Made by a program: the position numbers and the translations under genes
Shown: piece after piece, positions 4,000 to 29,039 of the stretch
Layout: each line of letters begins with the position of its first letter
How positions within the stretch are numbered: the first letter of the stretch is position 1
The notes under the pieces: model-generated
What the model saw: the letters and a program-made list of their open reading frames with translations, nothing else
Database searches by the model: none
What the model was told of the DNA's origin: nothing
Origin: Patescibacteria group bacterium
Lineage (GTDB): Bacteria; Patescibacteriota; UBA1384; XYA2-FULL-43-10; 1-14-0-10-43-13
NCBI GenBank assembly: GCA_038078835.1
Contig: JBBTQI010000004.1
Coordinates: 3,352 to 67,351 of the forward strand
Direction of reading: 5' to 3'
Length of the DNA stretch: 64,000 bases

Positions 4000-4605
4000 A
4001 TGTCTAAGGATCGAATTCCAAGCGTTGTCCTGGAACGGACATTTGTTATGATCAAGCCCGATGGGGTTGAGCGGGGGCTGGTCGGCGAGATTGTCAAGCG
4101 GTTTGAGTCGAGAGGACTAAAGATTATCGCTCTAAAGATGGTCAAACCTTCAGTCGAACACATCGATCTGCACTATCCCAAAGACGAGAGTTGGATTGAG
4201 CGCTTGGGTGAAAAGGGTTTTAATGTTTTTGCCGAGTACGGCTTAGACCCCAAGGAGTATATGGGTACCGGCGACAAGAAAGAGGCGGGAAAAATGGTGC
4301 GGGACTGGCTGGTGCAGTATATTGCCGATGCGCCGGTTGTGGCAATGGTGATCCAGGGGATTCATGCCGTTGATATGGTGCGCAAGATCGTGGGTTCAAC
4401 GTTGCCCAATAAAGCAGATATTGGTACCATTAGAGGTGATTACTCTATTGATTCACCTGCCGCCGCGAATTTAAGCAAAAGAGCGGTGAAGAACCTGATC
4501 CATGCTTCTGAAAACGCCGCTGAGGCCAAAAATGAGATCTCGCACTGGTTCTCGCAGGAGGAGATCTATGATTACGAGCGTGCCGACCACCGCTCTATGT
4601 TTTAG
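4000..4605 (+). CDS. ndk: nucleoside diphosphate kinase with an ~45-aa internal insertion
   Basis: ERTFVMIKPDGVERGLVGEIVKRFESRGLKI.. is the canonical NDK N-terminus; RBS AGGAGAG upstream. Confidence 0.85.
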   Translation: MSKDRIPSVVLERTFVMIKPDGVERGLVGEIVKRFESRGLKIIALKMVKPSVEHIDLHYPKDESWIERLGEKGFNVFAEYGLDPKEYMGTGDKKEAGKMVRDWLVQYIADAPVVAMVIQGIHAVDMVRKIVGSTLPNKADIGTIRGDYSIDSPAAANLSKRAVKNLIHASENAAEAKNEISHWFSQEEIYDYERADHRSMF

Positions 4606-4762
4606 CTGTAGCTAAAACATAGAAAGTCCGAAATCTTAAATCCGAAGGTCGAAACAATAATTGAATGCTCAAAATGCAAACAACAGGTCTTTTTGGAAAT
4701 TTGAGATTTTGGTCATTTGAATTTGTTTAGGGTTTAGAGATTAGATATTCGGATTTTTAATT

Positions 4763-5893
4763 GTGTTTTACATCCTGCCCTTTATCTTTTCTTTCCTGAT
4801 ATCGGTCTTTCTGACGGGAGTTGCCCGGCGGCTCGGTTGCTATTTTGGCATTGTTTCGGTGCCCCGGCCGCGCGATGTGCACAAAGTGCCGGTGCCCCGA
4901 ATCGGCGGTTTGGCAATATTTACAACGTTTATTCTGGTTGCCCTGGTTTATTTTTTGTACGTCGTGCCGGAGTGGGCCTTTGCTACTGGAAAAATTTGGG
5001 GCATCGACTATAGGCTGGGAGGCATAGCTGTCGGCGGGTTGATATTGGTTGTGGCGATGCTGGTTGATGATGTCCGGGGTCTTGGAGTGCGGCAAAAGTT
5101 TCTCTTCCAGTTCTTGAGTGTGGTTGCCGTGATTGGAGGGGGTGTCGGTATCGATTTCCTTTCCAACCCCTTTGGGGGAGTGATTAATCTTAATTCAGTT
5201 TATCTTCCAATTATGACAGTTGGAGGTACAACCTACCACTTTTCTCTCTGGTCTGATCTGTTAACGCTAGTCTGGTTGGTTGGAATGATGAATGTGATGA
5301 ACTTTATTGACGGTGTCGACGGCTTGGCGGGAGGGATCTCTATTATTGCCGCCTTCACGGTTTTTCTTCTCTCGGTCAGCATTATGGTTAATCAGCCGGG
5401 GACGGCGCTGTTGGCTATTATTCTGGCCGGAGCAACGGCGGGCTTCCTGGTCTGGAACTTTCCCCCGGCTAAGATCTTTATGGGTGATACCGGCAGCATG
5501 TTTCTGGGTTATATGCTGGGAACCCTGGCCTTAATCTCGGGGGGGAAATTGGCCACCGCCTTTCTGGTAATGGGCTTTCCGATTATCGACGGCATTCTGG
5601 TGGCCGGAGCGCGAATCATTCGGAGGCAAAACCCCTTTACCACGCCGGATAAAACCCATCTCCATCATCGTTTTCTGCGGGCCGGTTTCACGCCGCGCCA
5701 GGCCATCCTTTCGCTTTATATGATCGCCGTCGCCTTCGGTTATATGGCTATTTTCTTCAAGACAATGGACAAGGTTTTTGCCGCTTTTGTTCTGGTGGTG
5801 CTGGTGGTGGTGCTGGCCAAATTCTTAAATTATCTGGCCAATAAGAGACTTCAGATACAGGGCGCGGAGGGCGGCGATTGGTGTAAAAAATAG
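4763..5893 (+). CDS. glycosyltransferase family 4 (MraY/WecA-like polyprenyl-phosphate sugar-1-phosphate transferase), GTG start
   Basis: Multi-TM protein with the NFIDGVDGLAGG and DDV.GL motifs typical of MraY/WecA. Confidence 0.75.
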   Translation: MFYILPFIFSFLISVFLTGVARRLGCYFGIVSVPRPRDVHKVPVPRIGGLAIFTTFILVALVYFLYVVPEWAFATGKIWGIDYRLGGIAVGGLILVVAMLVDDVRGLGVRQKFLFQFLSVVAVIGGGVGIDFLSNPFGGVINLNSVYLPIMTVGGTTYHFSLWSDLLTLVWLVGMMNVMNFIDGVDGLAGGISIIAAFTVFLLSVSIMVNQPGTALLAIILAGATAGFLVWNFPPAKIFMGDTGSMFLGYMLGTLALISGGKLATAFLVMGFPIIDGILVAGARIIRRQNPFTTPDKTHLHHRFLRAGFTPRQAILSLYMIAVAFGYMAIFFKTMDKVFAAFVLVVLVVVLAKFLNYLANKRLQIQGAEGGDWCKK

Positions 5894-5935
5894 CAAAAAA
5901 GTCGAAAGTTGAAAGTAAGGCTTGGGGGTCAAAAT

Positions 5936-6418
5936 ATGGAGAAAGAATATTCATTTAACGGACAGAGAGCGAGAGAGGGGGTAGTGGCGGTGATTAAGAA
6001 TCACCCCTACGTTCTCTTTTTGCCGGGACTCAAGGCGATTGTTCTCTGGCTTCTGGCCGCCGCCTTAATCTTTTCCTGGTCGAATGAGTACTCTGGTTTA
6101 TTTGCCTTTATTTTGTTTGTTGTGGGTTTAAGTTTTCTGGGGAGGTCTTACTTTGTCTATTCACAAAGCACTCTTTTGATTACCAACCAGCGGGTGATCA
6201 ATATCGGTCAAACCGGTTTTTGGGTGCGGCGCATCACCGAAACCGAGCTGGCCAACATCCAGGATGTTTCTTCTCACACCTCCGGCGTTTTTCGTACCAT
6301 GCTTAAATTCGGCGATCTCATTATTCGCACCTCCGGCGCTGCTCAAGGGAGTGAGATTATCGTCAAAAACATCCCCAATCCCTACGAAGTCCAGCAGGTT
6401 ATTGCGGGGATCAAGTAA
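5936..6418 (+). CDS. bacterial PH-domain (bPH_2/YdbT-like, DUF304) membrane protein
   Basis: Two TM helices followed by a ..LLITNQRVI...IQDV...G.L.F.. pattern of membrane-flanked PH domains. Confidence 0.55.
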   Translation: MEKEYSFNGQRAREGVVAVIKNHPYVLFLPGLKAIVLWLLAAALIFSWSNEYSGLFAFILFVVGLSFLGRSYFVYSQSTLLITNQRVINIGQTGFWVRRITETELANIQDVSSHTSGVFRTMLKFGDLIIRTSGAAQGSEIIVKNIPNPYEVQQVIAGIK

Positions 6419-6436
6419 TCCCGTTTTTGCAGGCTC

Positions 6437-9400
6437 TTAGACCACATTCTCTGTGCCGACAAGTTCTTTGAGTTGCTTTAGGACCACCGGAGTCGGGTGG
6501 GTTTTTTGTTTGATCTTAATTTCTTTGTAACTCGAATCGTTATTGGGAATTTTAAGAATAATGCCGGCCTCGCCCGGGTGCTTGGTGATGACATCCTTGA
6601 TATCAGCTAAGATCGACTTATCGCAACCGGCAGGCAAAATAATGGTTAGCGGTTGGCGGTTAACAGTTAGTAGTTGGGGATTTTCTGCTGAAGGCTCCGG
6701 ACTTGAGGCCGAAGGTCCAAAAGTCCGAGATTCTTGTTTTCTCTCTTGCCTTCGGCCTTCGGCCTTCGGCCTATTGCTAAAAGCTCTAGCCTTTTTGCTT
6801 CGCGGCTCGAAGGCCGGTATTGACTTGCCCTCAGAGAGCTCCCGGATCGTTTCGGCGAGGATTTTGGGAGCGCCGTCCTTAAATGAGACGTATCCGTCAA
6901 CAGCGATAATTTTGTCGGTTTGCCACGGCTCCGGATTTGCTTCAAGCACCTTGGGAAAAGCAAGAACCTCAACATTGCCGGAGAGATCCTCCATTCGGGC
7001 GAAGATCATATTCTGGTTTGAGCGCGTCATTATCTTTTGAATGGTGGTAATGATGCCGGAAACGCGGACAAACTCACCCTCAATCTCCTCTCGGATTTCA
7101 TTTAAGGATTTGTTCCGGTTTGGTTCAAGGAGGTGGCCGACACCGGAGAGGGGATGCTCGGAAACATACATTCCCAGAAGCTCGCGTTCCCAGGAGAGAC
7201 GCTGCTTGCGATCGGCCGGCTTAGTCGGCTCCAGATCGATATTGCTGATCTCGATCTCGTCTCCTTCGCCGAAAAGAGAGCTCTGGCCGGCCACCTTATT
7301 TTTCTGAAAGGTGCCGGCAAAGGAGAGAATCTTATCCATATTATAGAGAAGTTCGGCCCGCTCGCCGAGATCATCCAGCGCGCCGGCCATCACCAGGGAC
7401 TCGAGCGATTTTTTATTGATAACCTTGGGGCCCAGACGGGTAATAAAATTTTTGAGGTCGGGATAGATTCCCTCCCGCTTTCGCTCCTCGACGATTTCCT
7501 CGGCCACGGCCAGGCCGACATTTTTGATGGCGGAGAGGCCAAACCGGACATTACTCGTGTCTTTGACAACACCAAAGTCGACGAACGACTCATTGACCGA
7601 GGGGGGCAAGACTTGAATACCCATGCGCTTGCACTCTTCGATCTCCATCGCCAGCTTGTCCAGATCGTCCTTGTTTGAGGTCATAAGCGCGGACATATAC
7701 TCCGGCGGGTAATTCGACTTGAGATAAGCGGTTTGATAAGCCACAATGCCGTAGCTGGCGGCGTGGGCCTTGTTAAAACCGTAGCCGGCAAAGGTCTCGA
7801 TTTGTTGCCAGAGTTCAGTGGCAACGTGTTTCTCCATTCCGCGCTCGATGATCTGTTTAAAGAACTTCTCTTTCTGGGCGGCCATCTCGGAGACAATTTT
7901 TTTACCGATTGCTTTGCGGAACTTGTCAACCTCCTGCCAGTTGTAGCCGGCCAGCTCGATGGCGATCATTAAAACATCATCTTGATAGACGATGAGGCCG
8001 AGCGATTTATCGAGGATCTTCTCCATCCGCGGATCGGCATAGGTGATGCGAGAAGGATTGTGTTTTCTGGCAACGTATTCGGGGATGAAGGCCATTGGCC
8101 CGGGCCGGTAGAGCGCCACCATCGCCATAATATCGTGAATGGTTGTCGGACGAAGTTCCTTAATATGTTTGCGCATACCCTCGCTTTCCAGCTGGAAGAT
8201 GCCGATTGTTTCGCCGCGCGACAGAAGCTCAAAGGCCTTTTTGTCATCAAGAGGGATCTCGTCCAGTTTGATATCAAGATCATGGGTCTTTCTGATAATG
8301 CGCAAAGCATTTTTGATAATCGAGAGGTTGGCCAGGCCCAAAAAGTCCATCTTGATTAGTCCGACACCATCCTCGCCGACGGCATGCATTTCGTACTGCG
8401 TGATCAGCCGCTCGTTTTTGGTATCCATCATGACGGGAGTGAAGTTGGTAATCTCCTCCGGCGCAATGACAACGCCGGCGGCGTGAACCGAGGCGTGGCG
8501 GACGACACCCTCCAGCTTTTTGGCGATGTCAATACACTCCTTAACCTGGGCGTTGGCGGCATAGAGATCCCGCAGTTCGGCAATGTTCCTCAGAGCCTCC
8601 TTCAGGTTCTGACCAAAGGGAATCAGCTTGGCGATAGCATCAACCTCGGCATAGGTCATACCCAGAACCCGGCCGACATCGCGCACCGCCATACGGGCGG
8701 CCATCGTGCCAAAGGTGATGATCTGGGCGACGTGATCTTTGCCGTATTTGTCAGCAACGTATTGAATAATGGCATCACGGCCGGAGTCGGCAATGTCGGC
8801 ATCAATATCCGGCGCGGAGGGGCGGAAGGGGTTTAAGAACCGCTCAAAGGGGAGGTTGTAGTCAAGCGGGTTTAGCTGCTTGGGTGTGATGCCGAGAGCA
8901 TAGGAGACAAAACAGCCGGCGGCCGACCCTCTGGTGTTGGTGGGGATGCCGTTTTCCTTGGCCCAGTTAAAGAAGTCCTGGACAATAAGAAAATAACCGA
9001 GATATCCTTTTTGCTTAATAACATCAAGCTCGTACTCCAGTCTCTCCTTCATTTGCGGCGTAATCTCCCTAACTCTTTGGGGCAGTCTTTCCCCAATGAG
9101 TTTGCGGAGATAGGTCTCGTAGGTTTCGCCTTGGGGCAGGGGAAATTGGGGAAACTTAAACCTTCCCAGTTCCATTTTAAGATTACATTTTTCGGCGATC
9201 TCCAGGGTGTTGGTGATGGTCTCGGGATGGTCAGAAAAAGCGGCCATCATCTGTTCGGCGGTTTTTAGGGAGTAGTCATCATCCTTCATCGAGAGACGAT
9301 TCGTATCATTCATCGTCCGGCCGGTTTGGAGACAGACAAGAGCGTCTTGGGCGATGGCGTCATCGGGATTGACGTAGTGAGTGTCGCAGGTGGCGACGAC

Positions 9401-16006: not shown

Positions 16007-16273
16007 ATGAGTTGGATCATTGTGATCATCGTTGGCGCGCTTGTCGGTTGGTTGGCCAGTATTATGATGAAAACAGATGAACAGCAGGGACTATTAGCCA
16101 ATGTTATCGTTGGCGTTGTCGGAGCGCTCTTGGCCCAGTTAATTTTTGGTTTAATTTTGGGTATCGGCTCAGCTCAAGCGGCGGGAGATTTCAGTATTTG
16201 GGGCGTGGTTTGGGGTGTAATCGGCGCTGTGATCTTAATCTGGGTTCTTCGAGCCTTGAATTTATTCAAATAA
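16007..16273 (+). CDS. GlsB/YeaQ/YmgE-family stress membrane protein (transglycosylase-associated)
   Basis: [22 protein letters not shown]....[16 protein letters not shown] matches the family. Confidence 0.7.
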
Positions 16274-16538: not shown

Positions 16539-16934
16539 TTAAATGACGAGATAGTCTTGGGGTTGGGCGCGATTCACAACAACAACTTTACGGGCGTATA
16601 TTTCGGTTGGAAAACTTCGCCGCAACCGGATGTTTCGTTTGAGCAAGCCGGCTTGCTCAAAAAGGTTCCTGTCGGTGTAGATTTTGCCTACGGGTGTACT
16701 GGAGCGAAGGGAGCTGATACTGCCCGAACTTGCCGAACGCTTCTTGTAATAATTTGCTTGATTATACTCATTCTTACTTTCATAGCGGCGATAGTGCACG
16801 CTGTCTTCGGCCTTGGTGCTTAGGGCTTGCTTTAAGCCAAAGCGCATAATATATTCTGTCGCCGGAACACTAAAATAGAGGAGCAGAAAGACAATCGCGA
16901 AGATTTTTTTAGTTAATTTGTTGATCTTTATCAC
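16539..16934 (-). CDS. hypothetical secreted protein (N-terminal signal/TM segment)
   Basis: ORF with MIKINKLTKKIFAIVFLLLYFSVPA signal-like N-terminus. Confidence 0.4.
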   Translation of the reverse strand: MIKINKLTKKIFAIVFLLLYFSVPATEYIMRFGLKQALSTKAEDSVHYRRYESKNEYNQANYYKKRSASSGSISSLRSSTPVGKIYTDRNLFEQAGLLKRNIRLRRSFPTEIYARKVVVVNRAQPQDYLVI

Positions 16935-17091
16935 CTCCTTTGCCTTAGTCTGATTTAATTATGGCAAACTCCCGAATCGGGATCATTGGCCAGACCGACC
17001 AAAAAGAGGTGCTTGCAGAAACCGCCAACCAGATAAAAGCAACAAACCGCCCCATCGCTGGCGGCGGTTTGTTCTTGTTCGATCGGTAATC

Positions 17092-17613
17092 TTAGTTGCG
17101 TGTCCTGACAACGATATCGCCGGTAGCCACATCACCGACAAGGAAGTTGCGCGAGACATCGTTGTTGCCGGTGTTGACACTGATGGTGTTAACGATGTTG
17201 TTGTTTACGGTACTGGTAACAATCGGAGTTGTTGTTCTGACGGGCACTGTTGATGTGAGCGGGCGTATTCGCGGGGAGAAGAAAGACTGACTAGCAAATG
17301 GCCGATAGTAGCTGGAGTATGGCTGATAATAGGGATTGAAATAATACGGGTTATAGCTTTGACTGTAGCCGGAATAAAAGAAGGGCGAGAAAGGTCGAAC
17401 AGACTGCCGCTGGAATTGGGTTTGACGTCCCCCTCGCTGCTGCTGGTATTGAAATTGAAAGGCGGTTGGTTGGCTATAGTATGAGCTGCCCGACCAGGCC
17501 AGGGCGCTTGGTACTGCGGTAAAGTTTTGCTCCGGTGTGCCTAATAAGGCAGAAAACACCGCTATCGCCATTGCCGTCAGGCAAAACGCACCTAATGTGA
17601 AAACTTTTTTCAT
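17092..17613 (-). CDS. secreted Tyr/Gln/Ser/Pro-rich low-complexity protein with the conserved C-terminal motif ..NTGNNDVSRNFLVGDVATGDIVVRTRN
   Basis: Signal peptide MKKVFTLGAFCLTAMAIAVFSALLG; strong RBS (AGGAGGTGAAGG) upstream; C-terminal motif shared with 18518..18982. Confidence 0.55.
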   Translation of the reverse strand: MKKVFTLGAFCLTAMAIAVFSALLGTPEQNFTAVPSALAWSGSSYYSQPTAFQFQYQQQRGGRQTQFQRQSVRPFSPFFYSGYSQSYNPYYFNPYYQPYSSYYRPFASQSFFSPRIRPLTSTVPVRTTTPIVTSTVNNNIVNTISVNTGNNDVSRNFLVGDVATGDIVVRTRN

Positions 17614-17868
17614 CTTTAATCCTTCACCTCCTTTACTTCTCTAACCTCACTTTTAATTCTGAACGCTTTCTTAGGGTTGTGTATCCGCAAGCAGAGCCGG
17701 GCGCATAATCCTCTCTGGGGGAGCGGGGAATACTGCTGAAAAAAGACTATTAGGGGGATGGATAATTCTTGAATAAGAATCATTTGTGCCAGCGGTAAAT
17801 AGAAAGCGACAGGAAAACTTGTTCTAATCGGACAAACGGGGTTTTAAGGCCCCGTTTGTGGGGGGCGG

Positions 17869-18432
17869 TTAGCGTCGGATGGTGATGTCGGCCAAAGCAG
17901 TTACAAAGTTGCCGGCGATGTTTTCAAAGGCAATAGTGTCGTTTCTGGCATCAAGGCGGATCTGAAAATCCTGATCGCGGAGGATTCGAGTGCCAAGCCG
18001 GCGATAGAAGTTGTCGCCAACTCTGGCAACGACCGTAACGCCGCCCCGGAATCCATCCTGGCGCTGGCGAATAAGCATATGATCACTGGTGCGATCCGCA
18101 TTTACAATGATCAGCCGGCGCACTGCCAATTGGTCTGTTCCCGGAATATGGAAGCGGTCAAACATTCTGTCGCGGTTCATCTGTTGGAGCCGGCTATCGC
18201 TGATAGTATCGCCCAGCAGGATAATGTCGGGTTCACGACCCTCGCTTTGCCAATTAAAGCGGAGTGTTCCTTGAGTTGCGGTCCGACCGAAAAAGTCACC
18301 ATTATCAAATTGCCCCCTCTCTAAAAGATTATCTTCATATTGAGCCTTGGCATCAGCCGGGTTGATTGCGCCAAGAAGGGCGAGAGTCAACACTACGACG
18401 CTGGCTCGAGCAATTAATTTTTTAATATTCAT
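17869..18432 (-). CDS. secreted hypothetical protein (signal peptide)
   Basis: MNIKKLIARASVVVLTLALLGAINPADA signal peptide; RBS GAGGAG upstream. Confidence 0.5.
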   Translation of the reverse strand: MNIKKLIARASVVVLTLALLGAINPADAKAQYEDNLLERGQFDNGDFFGRTATQGTLRFNWQSEGREPDIILLGDTISDSRLQQMNRDRMFDRFHIPGTDQLAVRRLIIVNADRTSDHMLIRQRQDGFRGGVTVVARVGDNFYRRLGTRILRDQDFQIRLDARNDTIAFENIAGNFVTALADITIRR

Positions 18433-18517
18433 CTTATCTCCTCAAGCTATGATTTTATCCGGCATCACCTCAGGGGGTTTTGTTTGCCCCCGAGGTGATT
18501 TAGCCGGCCTTTTAGTC

Positions 18518-18982
18518 TTACCAGACGCGAACGGAGACATCTCCGGTTATCAGGTCGCCGGCAATGGTATTGCCGTGAACCCTGTTCTTGCCGGTGTTGG
18601 CGCGAATATCGACATCGTTATCTATATCAATGCGATTATCGATATCAACTCGCTTGCGGTAATCTAAATCCAGGCGGTTGTGGCCGTACTCGTAATCTTT
18701 GCCGTGTTTGTAATCCTTGTCATGGTCTTTGCGATACTTCTTATCGTAATCGAAATCTTTGGCATACTTTTTGCTGTGATCGTACTTTTTATAATCGTAA
18801 TCTTTACGGTATTTCTTGTCGTAATCGTGTTTCTTGTATTTAGGGGCGTAAGAAACCTTCTTGTAATCACGGTGGTCCTTGGACTTGGAATAGCTGGCTT
18901 CGGCCTCGCTGACGCCCAAAAGTGCGACACTCACCACCAACCCCAAGGCAACAATTGACATCTTTTTTAATACGTTTGACAT
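18518..18982 (-). CDS. secreted Lys/Asp/Tyr-rich repeat protein (KDYDYKKY-type repeats) with C-terminal motif ..NTGKNRVHGNTIAGDLITGDVSVRVW
   Basis: Signal peptide MSNVLKKMSIVALGLVVSVALLGVSEA; RBS AGGAGGTGAG upstream; the repeat DNA produces long ORFs in several frames. Confidence 0.5.
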   Translation of the reverse strand: MSNVLKKMSIVALGLVVSVALLGVSEAEASYSKSKDHRDYKKVSYAPKYKKHDYDKKYRKDYDYKKYDHSKKYAKDFDYDKKYRKDHDKDYKHGKDYEYGHNRLDLDYRKRVDIDNRIDIDNDVDIRANTGKNRVHGNTIAGDLITGDVSVRVW

Positions 18983-19236
18983 TTATCTCACCTCCTTCTT
19001 TCTTGTACTTAATTTAAGTTTGGCAGAAAGAAGTCGGCTTGGAAGGGCGGCCGGGGCGAGGTGATTAATGCAGGCGCAAGCCAGATCGAATTTGCTTTCA
19101 AAAAGGGCGGGTGCAGGAGAGAACTATTCGGCCAGAAGAATCTAGACCCGTTTTTACTAATTGAATCGATAATATGGCGGACGATTTTTCTTTTTCGGCC
19201 AACAAAAAAAGACCGACTGCGGCCCATTCTTTAACT

Positions 19237-19310
19237 TGGCTGCCAGGGAAGGATTCGAACCTTCGTAAACGGATCCAGAGTCCGTTGTCCTGCCACTAGA
19301 CGACCTGGCA
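19237..19310 (-). tRNA. tRNA-Gln (anticodon CUG), U1-A72, encoded CCA
   Basis: Reverse complement TGCCAGGTCGTCTAGTGGCAGGACAACGGACTCTGGATCCGTTTACGAAGGTTCGAATCCTTCCCTGGCAGCCA folds as a cloverleaf. Confidence 0.8.
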
Positions 19311-19490
19311 ATAATTGGGGCGGGGTGACTTGATGCGACTATAATAGTATCATTAATAGTATCATTTTTCGCCCGATCAGACAAGATCAATGAGGGTCAA
19401 TGAGGGTCAGGGTGGAAATATGGATATTATCTCGAGCTGACAGGGGGTGCCAATGCTGCTACTATATTGATAGTCAACAAAGGAGGCAAG

Positions 19491-19997
19491 ATGGACAAAA
19501 CGGTACTTATGGTTATCGCCAACCAGGACTTTCAGGACACGGAATTTAGTGTGCCCCGGTCAATTTTAGCTGAACATGGCATCGGCATTAGGATCGCGGC
19601 GGCCGTGCCGGGGAATTGTCTCGGCATCAAGGGGACACAGGTGACAACAGATACAACTTTTGACGAGGTTAATGTGGGTGATTATGACGCGATTCTCTAT
19701 GTGGGCGGCGTCGGAGTTGAATCGTATTTTACGAACGAACAAGCTCTAGGGCTGGCGCGGGATTTTCTAGCCGCCGGAAAGCTTGTTTGCGCCATCTGCT
19801 GGGCGCCGGTTATTCTGGCCCGGGCCGGCTTGCTTGAGAGCAAGCGGGTGACAGCCTGGCCGGGGGCAAAGAATGATGTTGAGCGAGCCGGCGCGACCTA
19901 TACCGGCAATCCGGTGACCGTTGACGGTTTAATCGTGACGGCCAACGGGCCGGAGGCGGCCGAGAACTTTACCGAGGTAATTATCGGTTTGCTGTAG
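19491..19997 (+). CDS. DJ-1/PfpI-family protein (class I glutamine amidotransferase-like fold)
   Basis: ..VLMVIANQDFQDTEF.....AICWAPVILARAGLL.. with conserved Cys nucleophile elbow; RBS AAGGAGG upstream. Confidence 0.8.
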   Translation: MDKTVLMVIANQDFQDTEFSVPRSILAEHGIGIRIAAAVPGNCLGIKGTQVTTDTTFDEVNVGDYDAILYVGGVGVESYFTNEQALGLARDFLAAGKLVCAICWAPVILARAGLLESKRVTAWPGAKNDVERAGATYTGNPVTVDGLIVTANGPEAAENFTEVIIGLL

Positions 19998-20077: not shown

Positions 20078-20154
20078 GCCGCGTTCGTCTAGTGGTCCAG
20101 GACGCCGCCCTCTCACGGCGGAAATCATGGGTTCGACTCCCATACGCGGTACCA
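20078..20154 (+). tRNA. tRNA-Glu (anticodon CUC), encoded CCA; G1-U72 wobble
   Basis: GCCGCGTTCGTCTAGTGGTCCAGGACGCCGCCCTCTCACGGCGGAAATCATGGGTTCGACTCCCATACGCGGTACCA folds as a cloverleaf. Confidence 0.75.
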
Positions 20155-20200
20155 TCCCACGTTGCTCCACCGCGCCTTAATTTCATGTAAATGTAAAATT

Positions 20201-20503
20201 ATGAGCCAAGAAGAAATTATTTCAAAAGTTAAACAAGCAATTGAGACAGATCCGGATAAGGACTATATCCAGAGCGTTAGTCTTTTCGGTTCTTTTTTGC
20301 ATGGCAATACCAAATCTGATAGTGATGTCGACCTCTTTTTTGAGCAGCGCAAAGCCATGGGGTACTTCAAGCTTTTTGATATCCAACAGCGCTTAAAAGA
20401 AAAACTGGGCTGTGAAGTCGACTTAGTTCCTAAGGATTCACTCGATAAATATATCAGAGATGAAATAATTGCCGAAGGCAAGAAAATTTACGAACATGAA
20501 TAG
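20201..20503 (+). CDS. mntA: MntA-type minimal nucleotidyltransferase (Pol-beta superfamily) antitoxin
   Basis: ..VSLFGSFLHGNTKSDSDVDLFF.. is the GS...D.D nucleotidyltransferase motif; ATG at 20201. Confidence 0.7.
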   Translation: MSQEEIISKVKQAIETDPDKDYIQSVSLFGSFLHGNTKSDSDVDLFFEQRKAMGYFKLFDIQQRLKEKLGCEVDLVPKDSLDKYIRDEIIAEGKKIYEHE

Positions 20504-20831
20504 AGATAAATTACACTTGCTTCATATCAGAGATGATTTAGCCAAAATTGAGGAATACTCAAAGAGTTTAGACTGTACTAAATTTGCCGAGCGCGATCGA
20601 GAATTTGACGCTATCATGATGAGAGTAATAAAAATCGGCGAAGAAGTTAATTCCTTAAGTGAAGAACTCAAGGAAAAATATCGTGACTTGCCTTGGCATA
20701 AAGCCGTTGGTTTTAAGAACCAGGTTGCTCATGGTTATTTAGATATCAAACCAAGCCTTGCCTGGGAAACGATCACAAAGGATTTGCCTATTCTCAAGAA
20801 AGACATTGAGAATATTCTCAAGCAATATTAA
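20496..20831 (+). CDS. hepT: HepT/DUF86 HEPN-domain toxin (R-x4-6-H motif: FKNQVAHGY); start overlaps mntA stop (ATGAATAG)
   Basis: DUF86-like sequence with RxxxxH HEPN motif; 8 nt overlap with the upstream gene, typical of TA operons. Confidence 0.7.
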   Translation: MNRDKLHLLHIRDDLAKIEEYSKSLDCTKFAERDREFDAIMMRVIKIGEEVNSLSEELKEKYRDLPWHKAVGFKNQVAHGYLDIKPSLAWETITKDLPILKKDIENILKQY

Positions 20832-20907: not shown

Positions 20908-21835
20908 CTATTGTACGGCGCGGGCGGCGTTGACGAGACCGGCGCCAAAGTTAGCATCCGGGCCGGGTTGTCCCAGGTCACTAGCTGAGGATTTCAGTTT
21001 ATTTTTGACCTCGGCGGCATCCCAGCGGCCATTGCCGTTATCGTCACTGCCGCCAACGGGGCGGGAGATAACCAGCGCGGCGACAACAGTGGCGCCGGCG
21101 TTATTGGCTCTGATGATGGCATCGCGGAAGGACTGGACCGGTGTGGGCGAGCCCAAGCTCAAGTTAATAACCTGCATCCTGTTGGCGACGGCCCAGTCAA
21201 TGCTGTCAATTAAATCGGAAAGATTGCCGGAACCGTTGCTGCCCCGGGCTTAGAGCGTTGTAGCCGCCCTTGATGTTGGCACTCAGGTCGGGGTGGCGCA
21301 GGTCAATACCGGTATCAATCACGGCGACTCTGACCGATTCGCCCGAGGTGGTGTTCCAGGCGGAGTTAGCGCCAATTTTGCTCACACCCCAGGGGACATT
21401 CTCATTGCCGGGCTGGGGTGTCGGGGTTGGTTGGGGCTCTGGTGTCGGCTCTGGAGTCGGATTGGGTTGAGGATAGGGTGACGGCCAAGGCCAGCGCCGA
21501 TGGCGGAGACTTTCGGCATTATCAGTTTCGAATGTCTTGATGACAATATCGTCATCCAGGCGCAGCACCTCCGGTTTTTGGGCCAGTTGGCGCTCGGTGT
21601 GACGATTGGCATAGACCGTTTTGCTGCGGCGGTGCCTCATATTCCTGATCTTTCGGGCTCCGGCCTGACTCAGGATTTCATCCTGAGCTTTTTCGTCGAG
21701 TGAGTTTTCCCGAAAGACTACTATCTTGCGTCGAGGCATCTCTTCCTCTGCTTGGGCCGCCAGAGGCAGGGCGCCAAGAATCATCGTAATCAAAAGAAGG
21801 AGGGAGAGGGCCAGTCGAGATTTGCTGTAGCTCAT
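20908..21835 (-). pseudogene. degraded subtilisin-like (S8) serine peptidase: signal peptide, Pro/Thr linker, Asp box (VAVIDTGID) retained; a frameshift near 21245 removes the His-box region and the Gly-Thr-Ser-Met-Ala catalytic Ser region is absent
   Basis: Two ORF fragments (21206..21835 and ~20908..21240) in different frames; ..GSNGSGNLSDLIDSIDWAVAN.. and ..NLSLGSP.. (oxyanion Asn) are present but the His and Ser motifs are missing. Confidence 0.55.
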
Positions 21836-22446: not shown

Positions 22447-23730
22447 TTACTTTAGCGGAATTGAAATGATGAAGGTTGTGCCCTTGCCGACGACACTCTT
22501 TATCTCAAAGGCGCCGCCGTGCCTTTCGGTAATGGTTTTGGCAATAAACACACCCAGGCCGGTGCCATGGTTGTCAAGATCAATGGCGCTTTGTGAGCGG
22601 TAAAACTTATCGCCGACGTGTGGCTTATCTTCATCTGAGATGCCAATGCCTGTGTCGGCAATCTTGAAAACAGCATTTTCTTTAATGCTCTCAAAGCTGA
22701 CTGAAACACTGCCCTTGGGAGTGTATTTTAGGGCATTGTCAATCAGGTTTGATAGGGCCTGAAAGAGCTTGTCTTCATCAGCGTAGGCTAGGGCATTGCT
22801 GGCAACTTCGGAAAAAGCAAGTTTGAGGCCACGCTTATCGGCAGTATGAGCATAGATATGGTCAAGATTCTTAAACAGTTCAGCCACACTGATATCATTC
22901 TTCTCGAGCTTGATACTCTCTTGTTCGATGCGGGAAATTGAAAGCATATTGCCGGTAAGATTGATCATCTTAGAGACAGCGGCCTCAATTTCTCGCATAT
23001 AATTCTCCTGCTTTGGGGAGATTTTGCCGACTTTGCCCGAGAGAAAGAGAGAAACAAAGCCATTGATGATTGATAAGGGGGTGTTAAGTTGATGGGATGT
23101 TAGCGCAATAAACTCTTTATCTCGCCGGACAAGCTCATTTTCATAGGTAACATCTCGAATAATGGCCAGCGCCTTTTTGCCCTCACGGTCACTGCTGACC
23201 AGAGTTGAGCTTGCCTCAATGTCGATTAGATTGCCCTGTTTTGTTATTAACGAGTTCTTGACATAGGGTTGCTTTTTGAGGTTGGCGGGTAGAAACATAA
23301 TATCAGGCAAGAGACTGTTTTCGGAGTCGCCTTTAAATTTCAGAACGTCTTTGACCGGCTTATTTAAAACCTCATCAGTCTCGAAGCCGGAGATGCGCTC
23401 GAGTCCGGGAGAAAAGCTGATAATTTTTTGAAATTCATCAAGAATGATAATACCGTCAGCCGAATGTTCATAAATTAAGTCAAAAGTTTTTTGACGGCTG
23501 GCAAGCTCCCGTTGCTGGGAGGCAATGGCCCGATTTTTTTCCTGTGTTTCCAGATAGAGGCGGTTGCTCCTCAAATACCAAAACCCGCCGGCAATAATAC
23601 CGGCCGCCGCGAGATACCTCAACATACTTTCGGCTATATACCAGGGAAAGAAATAAATGGTGATAAAGGTGGCAATAATAATGAGCGACCAGGTTAGGAT
23701 CTCTAGCGGAGTACCTTGTTGCTTAATCAT
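22447..23730 (-). CDS. sensor histidine kinase (N-terminal TM, PAS domain, HisKA, HATPase_c)
   Basis: ..LTSHQLNTPLSII.. (H box) and ..ADTGIGIS....GTGLGVFIAKTITERHGG.. (G boxes). Confidence 0.8.
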   Translation of the reverse strand: MIKQQGTPLEILTWSLIIIATFITIYFFPWYIAESMLRYLAAAGIIAGGFWYLRSNRLYLETQEKNRAIASQQRELASRQKTFDLIYEHSADGIIILDEFQKIISFSPGLERISGFETDEVLNKPVKDVLKFKGDSENSLLPDIMFLPANLKKQPYVKNSLITKQGNLIDIEASSTLVSSDREGKKALAIIRDVTYENELVRRDKEFIALTSHQLNTPLSIINGFVSLFLSGKVGKISPKQENYMREIEAAVSKMINLTGNMLSISRIEQESIKLEKNDISVAELFKNLDHIYAHTADKRGLKLAFSEVASNALAYADEDKLFQALSNLIDNALKYTPKGSVSVSFESIKENAVFKIADTGIGISDEDKPHVGDKFYRSQSAIDLDNHGTGLGVFIAKTITERHGGAFEIKSVVGKGTTFIISIPLK

Positions 23731-25280: not shown

Positions 25281-25530
25281 ATTTGTAATCGCTAAAGGGG
25301 TTGTCACGGCCATATCCATCAGAGTCTTTGGGCTTTTCGGGTAAGCCTCGTTCTTTGATAAGGCGCTCGTAAACGTTTCTCTTTACTTTGAGTGTCGGAG
25401 CAGAAGTTACGGATACCTCTTTGTTTACTTTGGGTTTTAAAAAATAAAAGTAACTAAAAACGCCGGCACTGATTAAGATGCAGATAAAGGCTATCGTTAG
25501 AGTAAGGCTGATTTTCTTTTCACTTTGCAT
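25279..25530 (-). CDS. small single-pass membrane protein at the distal end of the pil operon (function unknown)
   Basis: 83 aa ORF with TM segment LTLTIAFICILISAGVFSYFYFL; overlaps the pilO stop. Confidence 0.4.
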   Translation of the reverse strand: MQSEKKISLTLTIAFICILISAGVFSYFYFLKPKVNKEVSVTSAPTLKVKRNVYERLIKERGLPEKPKDSDGYGRDNPFSDYK

Positions 25531-26137
25531 AAAATTGTCCGTTAATTTTAAGACTTAGACCGTCTGTATTTGAGCTTCGGCCGATAGTGAGAGTGTCGAG
25601 GGAGTTAAAACGAGGGAAATTCTCCAGGTCGAGCATAATTTGCGTTAAGGTGTTGTAGCTGGCTGAGGTATCAAAGGAGAATTTCGTTCCGGCCTCGGTT
25701 TTAGCTTGGGTTTTTGGGGTTGCGGCATCACTATTTTTACCGGTTCCCTCCTCCTCTTTTGTTTCAGTACCCGTTGATTTGGTTTCCTTAACGATTGACT
25801 CGGTAATGGAGAGGCTATTTAAAATAACCCCGTTCTTTTGGGCCATTGCCTCAAGTTGGACAATAAAGTCGCTCACATTATCCTGGTCGGGCCACATCTT
25901 ATCAACCCTGTCAATCATCTCTTGGGTGGTATTCCAGTTTTTCTTTGTGTTCTCCAGAATGGCCAGTTTATCTTTGTGCTGGTTCAAGTTATATTGTTTT
26001 TCGTTGAGGGTGTTTTGGCGGGCGTTAAAGGTCTTAATCTGGGGCAGGAGACCAAACCAGATAACCATCCCGGCCAGACCAAAAGAGAGGAGTAGCTTAA
26101 CAAATATTTTTTCCATAAAAGCGGTACTTGAATTCAT
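25520..26137 (-). CDS. pilO: type IV pilus assembly protein PilO-like
   Basis: N-terminal TM + coiled coil + C-terminal domain; immediately downstream of pilN with a 4 nt overlap. Confidence 0.55.
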   Translation of the reverse strand: MNSSTAFMEKIFVKLLLSFGLAGMVIWFGLLPQIKTFNARQNTLNEKQYNLNQHKDKLAILENTKKNWNTTQEMIDRVDKMWPDQDNVSDFIVQLEAMAQKNGVILNSLSITESIVKETKSTGTETKEEEGTGKNSDAATPKTQAKTEAGTKFSFDTSASYNTLTQIMLDLENFPRFNSLDTLTIGRSSNTDGLSLKINGQFYAK

Positions 26138-26691
26138 TGAACTTTCTCCAATTGGGCGGTTAGGGAGAAGGTGTAGTTGCCGCCCTGTTCGCTATACGAA
26201 GAGGTTGTGAATCGGACGGATTTAAAATAATCGGAATTCTCAAGTTTGTCCTTGAATTTAGCGATCTCTTGGCGGCTTTCCGCTTTACCGGTGATGCTTA
26301 CCGCCTGTTGCTCGCCGGTGAAACTGACACTTTCGATTACAAGTTGCTTGGGGGTGGAGTAGGCGAGCTGGGCCATGATTGTGCTCCAGTAGACCTTTTT
26401 CTTGTTAACGGCATCTACCTTGTCAAGCTTGGCATTAAGGTCGTTAATGGCTTTTTCGACATCACTCAGGGCAATAATTCTTTTTTCGGTTTCACTCGTT
26501 TCCTCCTCAATGCGTTTTACCTGAGCTTTTTTTGTATTGTTAAAACCGTAGAGGGAGAGAGCGCCTAAGCCAATCAAGAAGGCCAGGACAACAACACCGC
26601 CGCAAAAACTGCCGACGATTCTCTTGGTCTTGTTTTGTCTCTTTAGTTCCGGAGGAATAAGATTGATCGCCATTTGAATTCTTCCTGACAT
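26134..26691 (-). CDS. pilN: type IV pilus assembly protein PilN (INLIPPE motif)
   Basis: MAINLIPPELKRQ.. followed by a TM helix and a coiled-coil region, typical of PilN. Confidence 0.65.
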   Translation of the reverse strand: MSGRIQMAINLIPPELKRQNKTKRIVGSFCGGVVVLAFLIGLGALSLYGFNNTKKAQVKRIEEETSETEKRIIALSDVEKAINDLNAKLDKVDAVNKKKVYWSTIMAQLAYSTPKQLVIESVSFTGEQQAVSITGKAESRQEIAKFKDKLENSDYFKSVRFTTSSYSEQGGNYTFSLTAQLEKVQ

Positions 26692-26769
26692 TCTACGTTG
26701 TTGGTTTTGTTAGCGTTGATACCATCTGGCTGTGGCACAGTATCGGTGCCGGTACGAGAGGCAGCGGCA

Positions 26770-27762
26770 TTAATCACTGCGCCACAGAGCGAGTCCGTAA
26801 GCAGTACTAAAATCAGTGTTTAGATGATGTTTCCCGGCTAGTTTCGGAACGACAACTTCACAATTTATTCCAATTTGCTCAGTCATTATCTGATCGATCT
26901 TGGCAAGACAGGCGCCGGATCCGCAGAGTATAATCTTACTCACCGGTTTTGGCTGATAATCACGGTTCTGGTGGTATTTGATTGCATTTAAGGCCTCCTC
27001 AACTATTGGCGCAACCGTCTTGGCGCTGATTGCGGTTTCGGTTGCGCCCGAGTCAGCCTTATTTTCAGTCGGTAGGGCCTCACTTTTGGCGGGAGTTTCT
27101 TGCAGTTGGTTTTTGCCGACACTTACGGTTGTAATGAGCCTGATGCTGCCCATATCCCAGATTGAGATGCGTGTTATCTCCGTTCCGATCTGGGCGACAA
27201 GAAAACAATCCTTGCTGTTGGCGGGAATAAGGGCTCGCCCAACCGCTAACGGTTTGGTTTCCAGGGCAGCTAACTCAAGGTTGGCCATTCGCGCCATCTC
27301 CGCATAATCGTCAACAAGTTTATTGGGAGCGGCTACCACCAGGATATCGACCAGCGATTCATTGGGATGAACGATCAGGACCTGATAATCAAGATAGACC
27401 TCATCAACTGACACGGGCAGGAACTGAGCGACTTCGGCGGCAATGGCGGAGTTATAATCGCCATTTTCCCGTTTTGGAATTTGGATAGTTTTTGAAAAGA
27501 CAAAGGTTTCGGGCAGTGTTGAGACGATCTGCCGCGCCCGGATGGGGTTTGGCTGGGCCCGGCGGCAGGCCTCAATAATTATTTTGGCGGTTGTTGCCTT
27601 GTCTTTAAAGTGGTCCTTTTCCAGAATGCGATCAGAGAGGATAAAATTGCAGGCACCATGGAGATAATGGCTGCTCCCGGCAATATCAAGCTGAACAAGC
27701 TTTAGGGTCTCAAAGCCGATATCAAGGCCAAAAACTTCACTTTTGTTCGCCAGAGGCCACAT
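26770..27762 (-). CDS. pilM: type IV pilus assembly protein PilM (actin-like ATPase fold)
   Basis: ..FGLDIGFETLKLVQLD... N-terminus and length/organisation typical of PilM. Confidence 0.75.
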   Translation of the reverse strand: MWPLANKSEVFGLDIGFETLKLVQLDIAGSSHYLHGACNFILSDRILEKDHFKDKATTAKIIIEACRRAQPNPIRARQIVSTLPETFVFSKTIQIPKRENGDYNSAIAAEVAQFLPVSVDEVYLDYQVLIVHPNESLVDILVVAAPNKLVDDYAEMARMANLELAALETKPLAVGRALIPANSKDCFLVAQIGTEITRISIWDMGSIRLITTVSVGKNQLQETPAKSEALPTENKADSGATETAISAKTVAPIVEEALNAIKYHQNRDYQPKPVSKIILCGSGACLAKIDQIMTEQIGINCEVVVPKLAGKHHLNTDFSTAYGLALWRSD

Positions 27763-27815
27763 TGGCAGTCCGCTCCTTAATCATCTCTTATAATTATATA
27801 AGATCGTTCACAATC

Positions 27816-29039
27816 TTACAAAGCATTAACAAGGCCATAGATTGGCTGAAGTACGGAAATAATAATTCCGCCAATGCCAATACCCATCATTATCATCAAA
27901 AACGGTTCAAGCAGAGTGGAGAGATTGGAGGTAATGGTGTCAACATCACGATCGAAAAAATCGGCCATATTTTCAAAAACCGTATCCAGGCTGCCGGATT
28001 TTTCTCCGACTGACGCCAATTGCCCGATAACCTTTGGGAACAGCTTGCTTTCTTTGAGTGTCGCGGAAACAAGGGCGCCGTTTTTGACCTTGGCTGACAT
28101 CGCGACGATCTCTTCCTGGTAGAGAACATTTCCCACGACGTTGCTGGAGGTTCTAAAAACCTCAAGCAACGGCAAGCCGGAAGCGGTAAGGGAAGAGAAT
28201 GTCCGGGTAAATCTCGCCATGTAAGTTTTTTTCATAAGGAGACCGATAATGGGTATCTTTAAGATAAGTCTGTCAAAGAAGCGCCGTCCCAGGGCAGTTT
28301 TTTTCCAGCGAAGGATCAATACGGATGCGATGGCCGCCCCAAAGGCAACAAAAACACCAAAATCCTTAATGACGGAGCTTATAAAAAGAACGATTCTGGT
28401 TGAGAGGGGTAGGGGAACGCCTGTTTCCTCAAAGATTGCTTGGAGTTGAGGAATGATAATTACCAAGACTAGAACGGTAACGGCAATCAGGGCAATTGTC
28501 ACCAGTATGGGATACGCCATAGCGCTGCGAACTTTACGATTTAATTCATAATCTTTTTGGAGCTGCTGAGTCATACGCCGGAGAACCATGTCAACATTAC
28601 CCGACTTTTCGCCCGAACGGATCATATTGACATAAATCTCGTTAAAATCCTGAGGGTTCTTGGCCAGTGCTGTTGAAAGCGGGGTTCCACCACTGACATC
28701 GTCAATTACCTGATCAAGCAATTTGGCGAAATGTTTGTTTTCGGTTTCGTCTCGAAGCGATTTGAGAGCGTCGATTATTGAAAGGCCGGAACGAATCATA
28801 ATCTCCATCTGTTCCGTAAAGATGATTTTATCTTTTAGTGAAAGTTTATTTTCAAAAACCGAGAGAAAACTTCGCTTTGAGGAAGTTCCTGTCGGATTTC
28901 GCTTTGGTTCTGTGCCGATGACCGGTTTGGGCTGTGCCTCCACCTTGGCATCAGCTGTTTCAGCCAAAGAGAGTCCGTCCTTGCCGGTTGCGGCGCTGTT
29001 TGATTCCGGTATTTTGATAAAGTTTTTTACATCTTCCAT
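27816..29039 (-). CDS. pilC: type IV pilus inner-membrane platform protein PilC (GspF family, two T2SSF domains)
   Basis: ..MIRSGLSIIDAL.... and ..MIRSGEKSGNVDMVL.. repeated GspF motifs, 3 TM segments. Confidence 0.8.
   Translation of the reverse strand: MEDVKNFIKIPESNSAATGKDGLSLAETADAKVEAQPKPVIGTEPKRNPTGTSSKRSFLSVFENKLSLKDKIIFTEQMEIMIRSGLSIIDALKSLRDETENKHFAKLLDQVIDDVSGGTPLSTALAKNPQDFNEIYVNMIRSGEKSGNVDMVLRRMTQQLQKDYELNRKVRSAMAYPILVTIALIAVTVLVLVIIIPQLQAIFEETGVPLPLSTRIVLFISSVIKDFGVFVAFGAAIASVLILRWKKTALGRRFFDRLILKIPIIGLLMKKTYMARFTRTFSSLTASGLPLLEVFRTSSNVVGNVLYQEEIVAMSAKVKNGALVSATLKESKLFPKVIGQLASVGEKSGSLDTVFENMADFFDRDVDTITSNLSTLLEPFLMIMMGIGIGGIIISVLQPIYGLVNAL

Follow-up and report, generated by a model that had tools for sequence, protein, structure and literature searches.

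In this study, four consecutive minus-strand open reading frames (ORFs) were analyzed at positions 16539-18982 of a 64,000-nucleotide stretch of Patescibacteria DNA (assembly GCA_038078835.1, contig JBBTQI010000004.1; the whole stretch is hereafter called the window). The source is a metagenome-assembled genome (MAG) from Hainich groundwater. The four genes, designated P1 to P4 by increasing coordinate, are shown by sequence and profile comparison to be paralogs of one short subfamily, arranged in tandem and best explained as anciently diverged. They are in differing states: P3 with a complete degenerate copy of a repeat unit of about 85 amino acids (aa), P2 and P4 with a terminal half-unit behind an expanded low-complexity region, and P1 with the module lost. 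The unit defines a wider family observed mostly in genomes labelled Patescibacteria, the longer members of which pair as anchored and unanchored proteins and are linked to sortase genes.

The ORF list of the window gave four genes that, together with the extreme composition of P2 and P4, agreed with the initial annotation. P4 (18518..18982, minus strand) is 154 aa long and consists of a putative signal peptide (aa 1-29, predicted cleavage between AEA and S), a K/D/Y low-complexity region (aa 30-110; K27/Y20/D20 % of the mature region) and a half-unit (aa 111-154). P3 (17869..18432, minus), 187 aa long and of secreted type, is not of low complexity; its predicted signal peptide ends between AKA and Q, and a degenerate complete unit occupies approximately aa 104-187. 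P2 (17092..17613, minus) has 173 aa, with a putative signal peptide or anchor at aa 1-39, a prion-like Y/Q/S/P/F-rich region at aa 40-128 (S17/Y15/Q15/P11/F11 %) and a half-unit at aa 130-173. P1 (16539..16934, minus), with 131 aa, has a hydrophobic N-terminus and a pre-unit segment (…RRSFPTEIYARKVVVVNR) and stops ahead of the module. At all four N-termini a basic n-region, a hydrophobic core and an A-x-A-like site were recognized, by eye and by a crude hydrophobicity rule, and the proteins are predicted on this basis to be exported by Sec. The 154-aa product of P4 is also encoded on ENA contig Hain_H43_01um_R2_194, with identical copies in several runs. In NCBI, P2 is entered as 'MAG: hypothetical protein AAB360_01050 [Patescibacteria group bacterium]', and its sole close database relative was P2 itself.

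The C-terminal relatedness of P2 and P4 noted in the initial annotation was confirmed over the last approximately 44 aa (BLASTP E=8e-7; 15/44 columns invariant). The P4 module, RVDIDNRIDIDNDVDIRANTGKNRVHGNTIAGDLITGDVSVRVW, lies at 18521..18652 (minus) and corresponds to positions 36-88 of the unit profile; that of P2, PIVTSTVNNNIVNTISVNTGNNDVSRNFLVGDVATGDIVVRTRN, lies at 17095..17226 (minus). The combined P2/P4 motif had no further occurrence in the six-frame translation of the window. At the DNA level, a weak 6-nt periodicity was seen within the D-I-D-N stretch of the module, and tandem-repeat analysis gave nothing else. The four proteins end, from P4 to P1, in …TGDVSVRVW, …ALADITIRR, …TGDIVVRTRN and …QPQDYLVI; 6 residues follow TGD in P4 and 7 in P2, 6 follow LAD in P3, and P1 has no module.

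The relationship extends to all four genes. A profile of the short subfamily was built from five members of other samples only (P0072, P0081, P0106, P0111, and P0130), and profiles were scored against the 811 six-frame ORFs of the window. At E<=1 the short-subfamily profile matched P4 (2.3e-13), P3 (1e-12), P1 (6.6e-7), and P2 (6.1e-6) and no other ORF. Because a profile made from external short members picks out exactly these four ORFs, all four are paralogs. P3 aligned over nearly its full length (ORF residues 18-189), P1 with profile positions 14-109 only, that is the N-terminal two-thirds, ending in ARKVVVVNR, and P2 and P4 by the terminal half-unit only. The canonical unit profile matched P4 (E=1e-19) and P2 (E=3.3e-8) and left P3 and P1 unmatched. 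The 'weaker version' of the motif attributed to the end of P3, although missed by the canonical profile, is thus backed by the short-subfamily profile and by one external member: phmmer of P3 against the fetched loci found the short member P0111 at 3e-7, and BLASTP of the two gave E=3e-8, with QIRLDARNDTIAFENIAGNFVTALADITIR aligned with RIRVNTGNNTVAFNTAAGDLVTGDVTISVR, so that the P3 C-terminus falls on the P0111 module. Within the P3 unit, NTGNN is changed to DARND and TGD to LAD. BLASTP aligned P1 with the part of P0072 that lies ahead of the unit (E=4e-6). The initial annotation had described a tandem family of secreted proteins with a shared element; the shared element stands, and the relation is not limited to two or three of the genes.

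To define the family, a profile of the two module sequences of P2 and P4 was run with HMMER in an exhaustive scan of 1.84 billion representative proteins. At E<=1e-3 it matched 139 proteins, of which 45 also passed E<=1e-10; most of the 139 carry 3-9 tandem units. Local re-analysis yielded 467 module copies, 414 of which could be extended into a consensus for a unit of about 85 aa with near-invariant N, T, and G residues: N..TG(P).S.N.N, strands N.A.I.N.I.I.A, NTG.N.I..NT.VG.V.TGD, and ..V.N.AN. The unit has three conserved T-G turns and looks all-beta. The P4 and P2 modules are its last half (profile positions 36-88 and 53-88), and the stand-alone C-terminal domain first proposed is therefore better described as the terminal half of a repeat. 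Three architectures were recognized: proteins of about 290 aa with 3 units that end exactly at the last unit (46 of the 139), proteins of about 625 aa with 4 units and a tail of about 150 aa (n=54), and proteins of 140-175 aa with one terminal unit (n=11, the window proteins included). In the short and 3-4-unit classes the ending is fairly fixed as TGD-x-[IV]-x-[IV]-[RQ].

Short members from elsewhere have a signal peptide, an aromatic or charged low-complexity region and the unit, with the stop codon about 6 aa (range 6-12) past TGD. The layout of the short subfamily can be written as signal peptide, low-complexity region, [FY]ARR(I/V)V..DRD, N..TGP.S.N, ..FF.., half-unit and stop. The closest analogue of P4 is P0074, from another sample, in which an R/D/Y/K-rich region is joined to a half-unit. 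A degenerate-DNA scan of Joint Genome Institute (JGI) metagenomes, with a pattern that required a stop codon 6 codons past the TGD of the module, added three short members with the full layout.

The module is thus present in many other proteins, as the initial annotation had supposed, and it matches no described sorting domain. Pfam, NCBIfam, and PHROGs gave no match above noise for the four window proteins or ten relatives, and PDB searches with sequences and with the unit profile gave no match. Among curated C-terminal sorting domains (PEP-CTERM, GlyGly-CTERM, T9SS CTD etc.), no relevant NCBIfam or Pfam match was found for any of the four proteins at E<=10. Two candidate matches were rejected: DUF7155 on P2 covers the signal peptide only and is below cutoff, and CsgF (E=0.011) matched 1 of 11 short members. 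A word-index homology search returned 0 candidates for the two-module alignment, only P2 itself for full-length P2, and one match for a 69-unit alignment; the family is too divergent for such an index and was recovered only by the exhaustive HMMER scan. A GTDB locus search with the two-module alignment likewise produced 50 pattern matches, none of which was confirmed. In the literature on sortase or surface-repeat proteins in Patescibacteria, no description of the repeat family was found. The repeat is therefore without curated or structural counterpart. In kind the proteins fall into the known category of secreted, sortase-linked surface repeat proteins, and those with a single half-unit and a low-complexity region form an additional variant.

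Genomic context was obtained by scanning GTDB species genomes with a hand-written degenerate DNA pattern, N-T-G-x-N-x4-N-T-x2-G-x3-T-G. Family ORFs were present in 86 of the 94 stretches found. Most records of these 86 loci carry the labels Saccharibacteria, Gottesman-, Woyke-, Andersen-, and Berkelbacteria, Parcubacteria, or 'Patescibacteria group'. Among the 86, typical cassettes were also seen in several MAGs deposited as 'uncultured Gammaproteobacteria' (L014, L041, L049, L065, L079, and others, one with a 915-kb chromosome) and in one deposited as 'Nanoarchaeia' (L036); either these records are mislabelled Patescibacteria or the family is spread more widely than would be judged from the remaining labels. 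Eight loci had no family ORF and were taken as chance matches. Seven of these are labelled Clostridia (two), Lachnospiraceae, Eubacteriales, Obscuribacteraceae, Armatimonadales, and Alphaproteobacteria, and for L101, the eighth, no label was listed. The initial annotation had proposed a search for the module in CPR and Firmicutes proteomes; Firmicutes do not share the family, the Clostridia and Lachnospiraceae pattern matches being without a family ORF.

At least two family genes were present in 66 of the 86 loci, and in 45 an unanchored gene ending at the unit was followed by an adjacent tailed gene. In the usual pair an unanchored 3-4-unit gene comes first; the 4-8-unit gene behind it encodes a linker and, at the C-terminus, a hydrophobic and basic anchor. 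Tails ending in a hydrophobic segment and basic residues were counted in 126 of 143 cases, and just upstream of the segment the motif [LFIVMY][PA]x[TAS]G occurred in 29 of the 126 (23% vs 3% in control windows). These 29 include LPXTG-, LPXAG-, and FPXAG-like motifs; PVAG and FFPAG are other tail variants, and strict LPXTG is missing from most long paralogs. When neighboring ORFs were clustered, sortase (PF04203, E=1.2e-19) was the commonest non-family neighbor (25 of 86 loci), its gene often beginning within a few bases of the stop codon of the long gene. In 20 loci a DUF4352-like membrane protein is encoded upstream, and genes for an S8 peptidase and a PucR-like regulator recur in 11 and 9 loci, respectively. 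Sortase is enriched in genomes of the candidate phyla radiation (CPR) (PMC6744442).

Anchored and unanchored members are thus paired in cassettes and linked to sortase, and P1-P4 carry no anchor signal: an LPXTG-type sorting signal (motif, hydrophobic segment, and basic tail) is absent from the C-termini of all four. The module had initially been considered a possible anchor; in this family anchoring falls to a separate hydrophobic, basic tail, sometimes LPXTG-like, together with the neighboring sortase. Taken together, the family and its sortase cassette point to a putative cell-surface system that appears to be undescribed.

Inspection of loci L012-L105 gave the order of the cassette, which recurs across CPR-labelled lineages, as an optional 2-unit anchored gene, a 3-4-unit unanchored gene, a 4-8-unit anchored gene, and sortase, as in L018 1881-6603, L042 2849-7472, L062 723-5398, and L072 3535-8000. 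Frequent additions are a DUF4352-like membrane protein gene on the upstream side and, downstream, a gene for an S8 peptidase or a PucR-like regulator; no curated family or paper was found for this arrangement. At L007, a 1210-aa CarboxypepD_reg-repeat protein (4154-9082) is encoded near a family member, with a type IV pilin-like (N_methyl) gene adjacent.

Multi-unit paralogs are present in the MAG from which the window comes (locus tags AAB360_). On another contig, a 304-aa 3-unit protein (P0003, AAB360_02410) is followed by a 614-aa 4-unit protein, and the pair is flanked by the divergent small gene usual in the cassette and a PucR-like regulator gene. In a second genome (CAZGWE01), a short member and the canonical pair occur together. 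The second family locus of the window's genome, which holds the 304-aa and 614-aa genes, is L005 1-14491 (contig Hain_H43_01um_R1_321). The 614-aa protein encoded there has a hydrophobic C-terminal stretch from which the usual basic tail is missing. L005 also holds the PucR-like regulator gene, two genes for small stress proteins with a KGG motif and, near the family member, a gene for a 904-aa Calx-beta/CarboxypepD_reg surface protein (4288-7002); close to the end of the contig is a LAGLIDADG endonuclease ORF.

From these observations it is proposed, tentatively and as a possibility we would not yet call probable, that the small proteins dock onto anchored paralogs by their terminal half-unit, with the result that adhesive low-complexity tails are displayed. 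P1-P4 would be exported via Sec; the terminal unit or half-unit would act as a homotypic beta-strand docking element, pairing with units of those anchored or multi-unit paralogs that the genome encodes at other loci; the small proteins would thereby be held at the cell surface, where the K/D/Y or Y/Q/S/P/F tails could serve as adhesive or matrix-forming material.

Several points weigh against this docking proposal. The 64-kb window contains neither a multi-unit paralog nor a sortase, and the short members of other samples have no adjacent multi-unit gene, their neighborhoods not being conserved. Half a unit is perhaps too small to fold or dock. With its module gone and its start codon in doubt, P1 suggests that one member or more may be in decay. 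The signal peptides were judged by eye and by the crude hydrophobicity rule. Structure prediction gave no support: AlphaFold2 applied to P0003 with 37 homologues returned beta strands only, at a mean predicted local distance difference test score (pLDDT) of 50.5, and the P4 C-terminus with 68 units returned pLDDT 47.7 and no secondary structure. No fold is claimed because both models are of low confidence. A Foldseek search of the P0003 model against the PDB gave nothing at E<=0.001, and its top ranks (FapC amyloid, SufD, and adhesin and antifreeze beta-helices) were not used, their probability being <=0.08 and their TM-score <0.1.

In another explanation, the small proteins would be self-assembling matrix or fibre subunits: the half-unit would nucleate a functional-amyloid-like cross-beta structure, and the tails of P2 and P4 would form a gel or coat without anchored paralogs. 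The module strands alternate hydrophobic and polar residues with conserved N, G, and T, the P2 region is rich in Q/Y/S/P/F, and low-confidence monomer models would be expected under templated folding. The occurrence of short members without a neighboring multi-unit gene also fits, as does the identity of the top, non-significant Foldseek entry, FapC, followed by beta-solenoids. However, the FapC match is statistically meaningless (probability 0.08, TM-score 0.08, on a model of pLDDT 50), no Curlin, Fap, TasA, or chaplin Pfam match was obtained even at E<=1, the CsgF match being confined to the single rejected case above, and multi-unit paralogs are present in both genomes that could be checked. 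We consider self-assembly of this kind unlikely.

The class with exactly three tandem units of about 90 aa, common among the matches (46/139), and the position of the module at the extreme C-terminus of unanchored members would also suit a non-covalent cell-wall-binding repeat of the SLH, CWB2, LysM, or GW-like kind, by which the small proteins would cling to peptidoglycan or to a secondary wall polymer. No match to SLH, CWB2, LysM, or any other Pfam wall-binding family was found, though, and half a unit would probably not suffice for a whole binding site. The units of the long paralogs lie toward the N-terminus, well away from the separate membrane or sortase anchor at the C-terminus, and wall binding would therefore be redundant there. 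This explanation is regarded as unlikely.

In a more far-reaching reading, the unit might build up a surface fibre or coat that is specific to Patescibacteria and grows by templated beta-strand addition, with the anchored long paralog as base or nucleator, the unanchored paralogs adding on, and the half-unit proteins decorating or capping the structure with adhesive tails. In this full form the idea is speculative, and we do not expect it to hold as a whole.

The translation signals of the four genes differ in quality. A Shine-Dalgarno sequence AAGGAGG (18991..18997, minus) lies 8 nt 5' of the P4 ATG at 18982, GAGGAG (18438..18443, minus) lies 5 nt 5' of the P3 ATG at 18432, and the P2 ATG at 17613 is preceded by the region AAGGAGGTGAAGGA (AAGGAGG/GAAGGA; 17620..17633, minus). 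The strong ribosome-binding sites ascribed to each gene are therefore normally spaced at P4, P3, and P2; at P1 the AAGGAG of the AAGGAGG in the 16923-16941 region (minus) overlaps or abuts the annotated GTG with zero spacing, and the P1 start codon is uncertain for this reason. A correctly spaced start would be a non-canonical AUC or AUA a few bases downstream, and the next ATG would drop the hydrophobic N-terminus. Hairpins follow three of the genes. Directly 3' of the P4 stop is a G+C-rich stem-loop (TCACCTCGGGGG…CCCCCTGAGGTGA; 18465..18498, minus) that has no T-run and is absent from the terminator scan; a second stem-loop (ACAAACGGGG…CCCCGTTTGT; 17832..17859, minus) is directly 3' of the P3 stop; and 3' of the P2 stop the terminator scan found a terminator-like hairpin with a T-rich tail (17046..17065, minus).

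The cluster is bordered by a Transgly_assoc-like small gene (16007-16273, plus) on one side and tRNA-Gln (19237-19310, minus) on the other. A DJ-1/PfpI gene (19467-19997) lies between tRNA-Gln and tRNA-Glu (20078-20154), and directly after the latter is an MNT-HepT (nucleotidyltransferase/HepT-like) toxin-antitoxin pair (20162-20831, plus). A subtilisin (S8) gene at 20908-21835 (minus) is split in two and probably a pseudogene: a 209-aa N-terminal ORF contains a signal peptide and the Asp motif VAVIDTGID, and the catalytic Ser region is missing from the other ORF, of 89 aa. The S8 cluster seen repeatedly beside family cassettes of other CPR genomes is matched by both pieces. With its MNT-HepT pair, tRNA genes, DJ-1/PfpI gene, and broken peptidase gene, the area beside the cluster looks like a variable region. 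When sortase, the DUF4352 protein, and other cassette partners were sought in the window, the S8 peptidase remnants were the sole matches. Further away, a histidine kinase gene (22447-23730) and two response regulator genes lie between the cluster and a type IV pilus assembly set (PilO-, PilN-, PilM-like, and T2SSF/PilC-like; 25520-29039, minus), which is about 6.5 kb from the cluster and for which no link to it was established.

This setting raises the question of whether the four genes are decaying remnants of multi-unit genes in a variable region, with little or no current function. The lost module of P1 and its start overlapped by the Shine-Dalgarno sequence, the lost signature residues of P3, and the split subtilisin gene, MNT/HepT pair, and two tRNA genes just upstream are all in keeping with decay, which is most plausible for P1. 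On the other hand, all four ORFs are intact, with signal-peptide-like N-termini, Shine-Dalgarno sequences, and hairpins downstream, and the identical locus was assembled from several samples. Unrelated samples show the short architecture again, even to the stop codon about 6 aa beyond TGD, and this argues against pure decay. For the cluster as a whole, decay is judged distinctly unlikely. That the module is a new C-terminal sorting signal, cleaved or ligated by a dedicated enzyme, seems very unlikely: its extreme C-terminal site, the fixed ending in the short and 3-4-unit classes, and the genetic link of the wider family to sortase would fit, but it also occurs internally, in 3-9 copies per protein, which marks it as a structural repeat and not as a tag at the end of the protein, it lacks both a hydrophobic helix and a basic tail, the anchor signals of the family being separate tails where present, the sorting-domain search of NCBIfam at E<=10 was negative, and no conserved enzyme or other partner gene was found beside the short members of other samples.

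A large part of bacterial diversity belongs to the Patescibacteria (CPR), which live in attachment to other cells. To our knowledge, their surface molecules, type IV pili excepted, are almost undescribed, and we know of no sortase substrates described in CPR. The present results expose a widespread, unannotated gene family, apparently of the envelope, that has no Pfam, NCBIfam, or PDB counterpart and whose cassette is tied to sortase. If a fibre or coat on the cell surface is built from this family, its members are testable candidates for host attachment or envelope structure, and the Tyr-rich half-unit proteins of the window would be the simplest accessory components. The tails could then attach to host cells or minerals, and the fibre would be a major unrecognized envelope structure of ultra-small bacteria. 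Should the window proteins prove inert, the family definition would still be usable to annotate hundreds of 'hypothetical proteins'.

Compared with known systems, the long paralogs resemble the sortase-anchored proteins of Gram-positive bacteria (LPXTG, Gram_pos_anchor, PF04203) in having a signal peptide, tandem repeats, a linker, a hydrophobic segment, a basic tail, and a sortase neighbor. The window proteins differ from these in having no tail or motif and no sortase within 64 kb, and the repeat matches no curated family. SLH and CWB2 wall-binding modules occur in a three-copy arrangement. The family may be likened to them in its tandem repeats of similar length and its common three-copy class, but there is no sequence similarity, and the units of the anchored family members are at the end away from the wall. 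To mussel foot proteins and prion-like Q/Y/S domains, P4 and P2 show a likeness of composition only, with no homology. For Curlin_rpt, CsgF, and Fap, no Pfam match was found beyond the chance-level CsgF. The system differs from curli in its unit of about 85 aa vs about 22 aa and in a membrane or sortase anchor in place of the CsgG/F outer-membrane machinery. In curli, CsgA adds onto the surface nucleator CsgB, and it is to this pair that the cassette may be compared by analogy, with adjacent paralogs of one Asn/Gly-rich repeat, one free and one tethered, that are poorly predicted as monomers.

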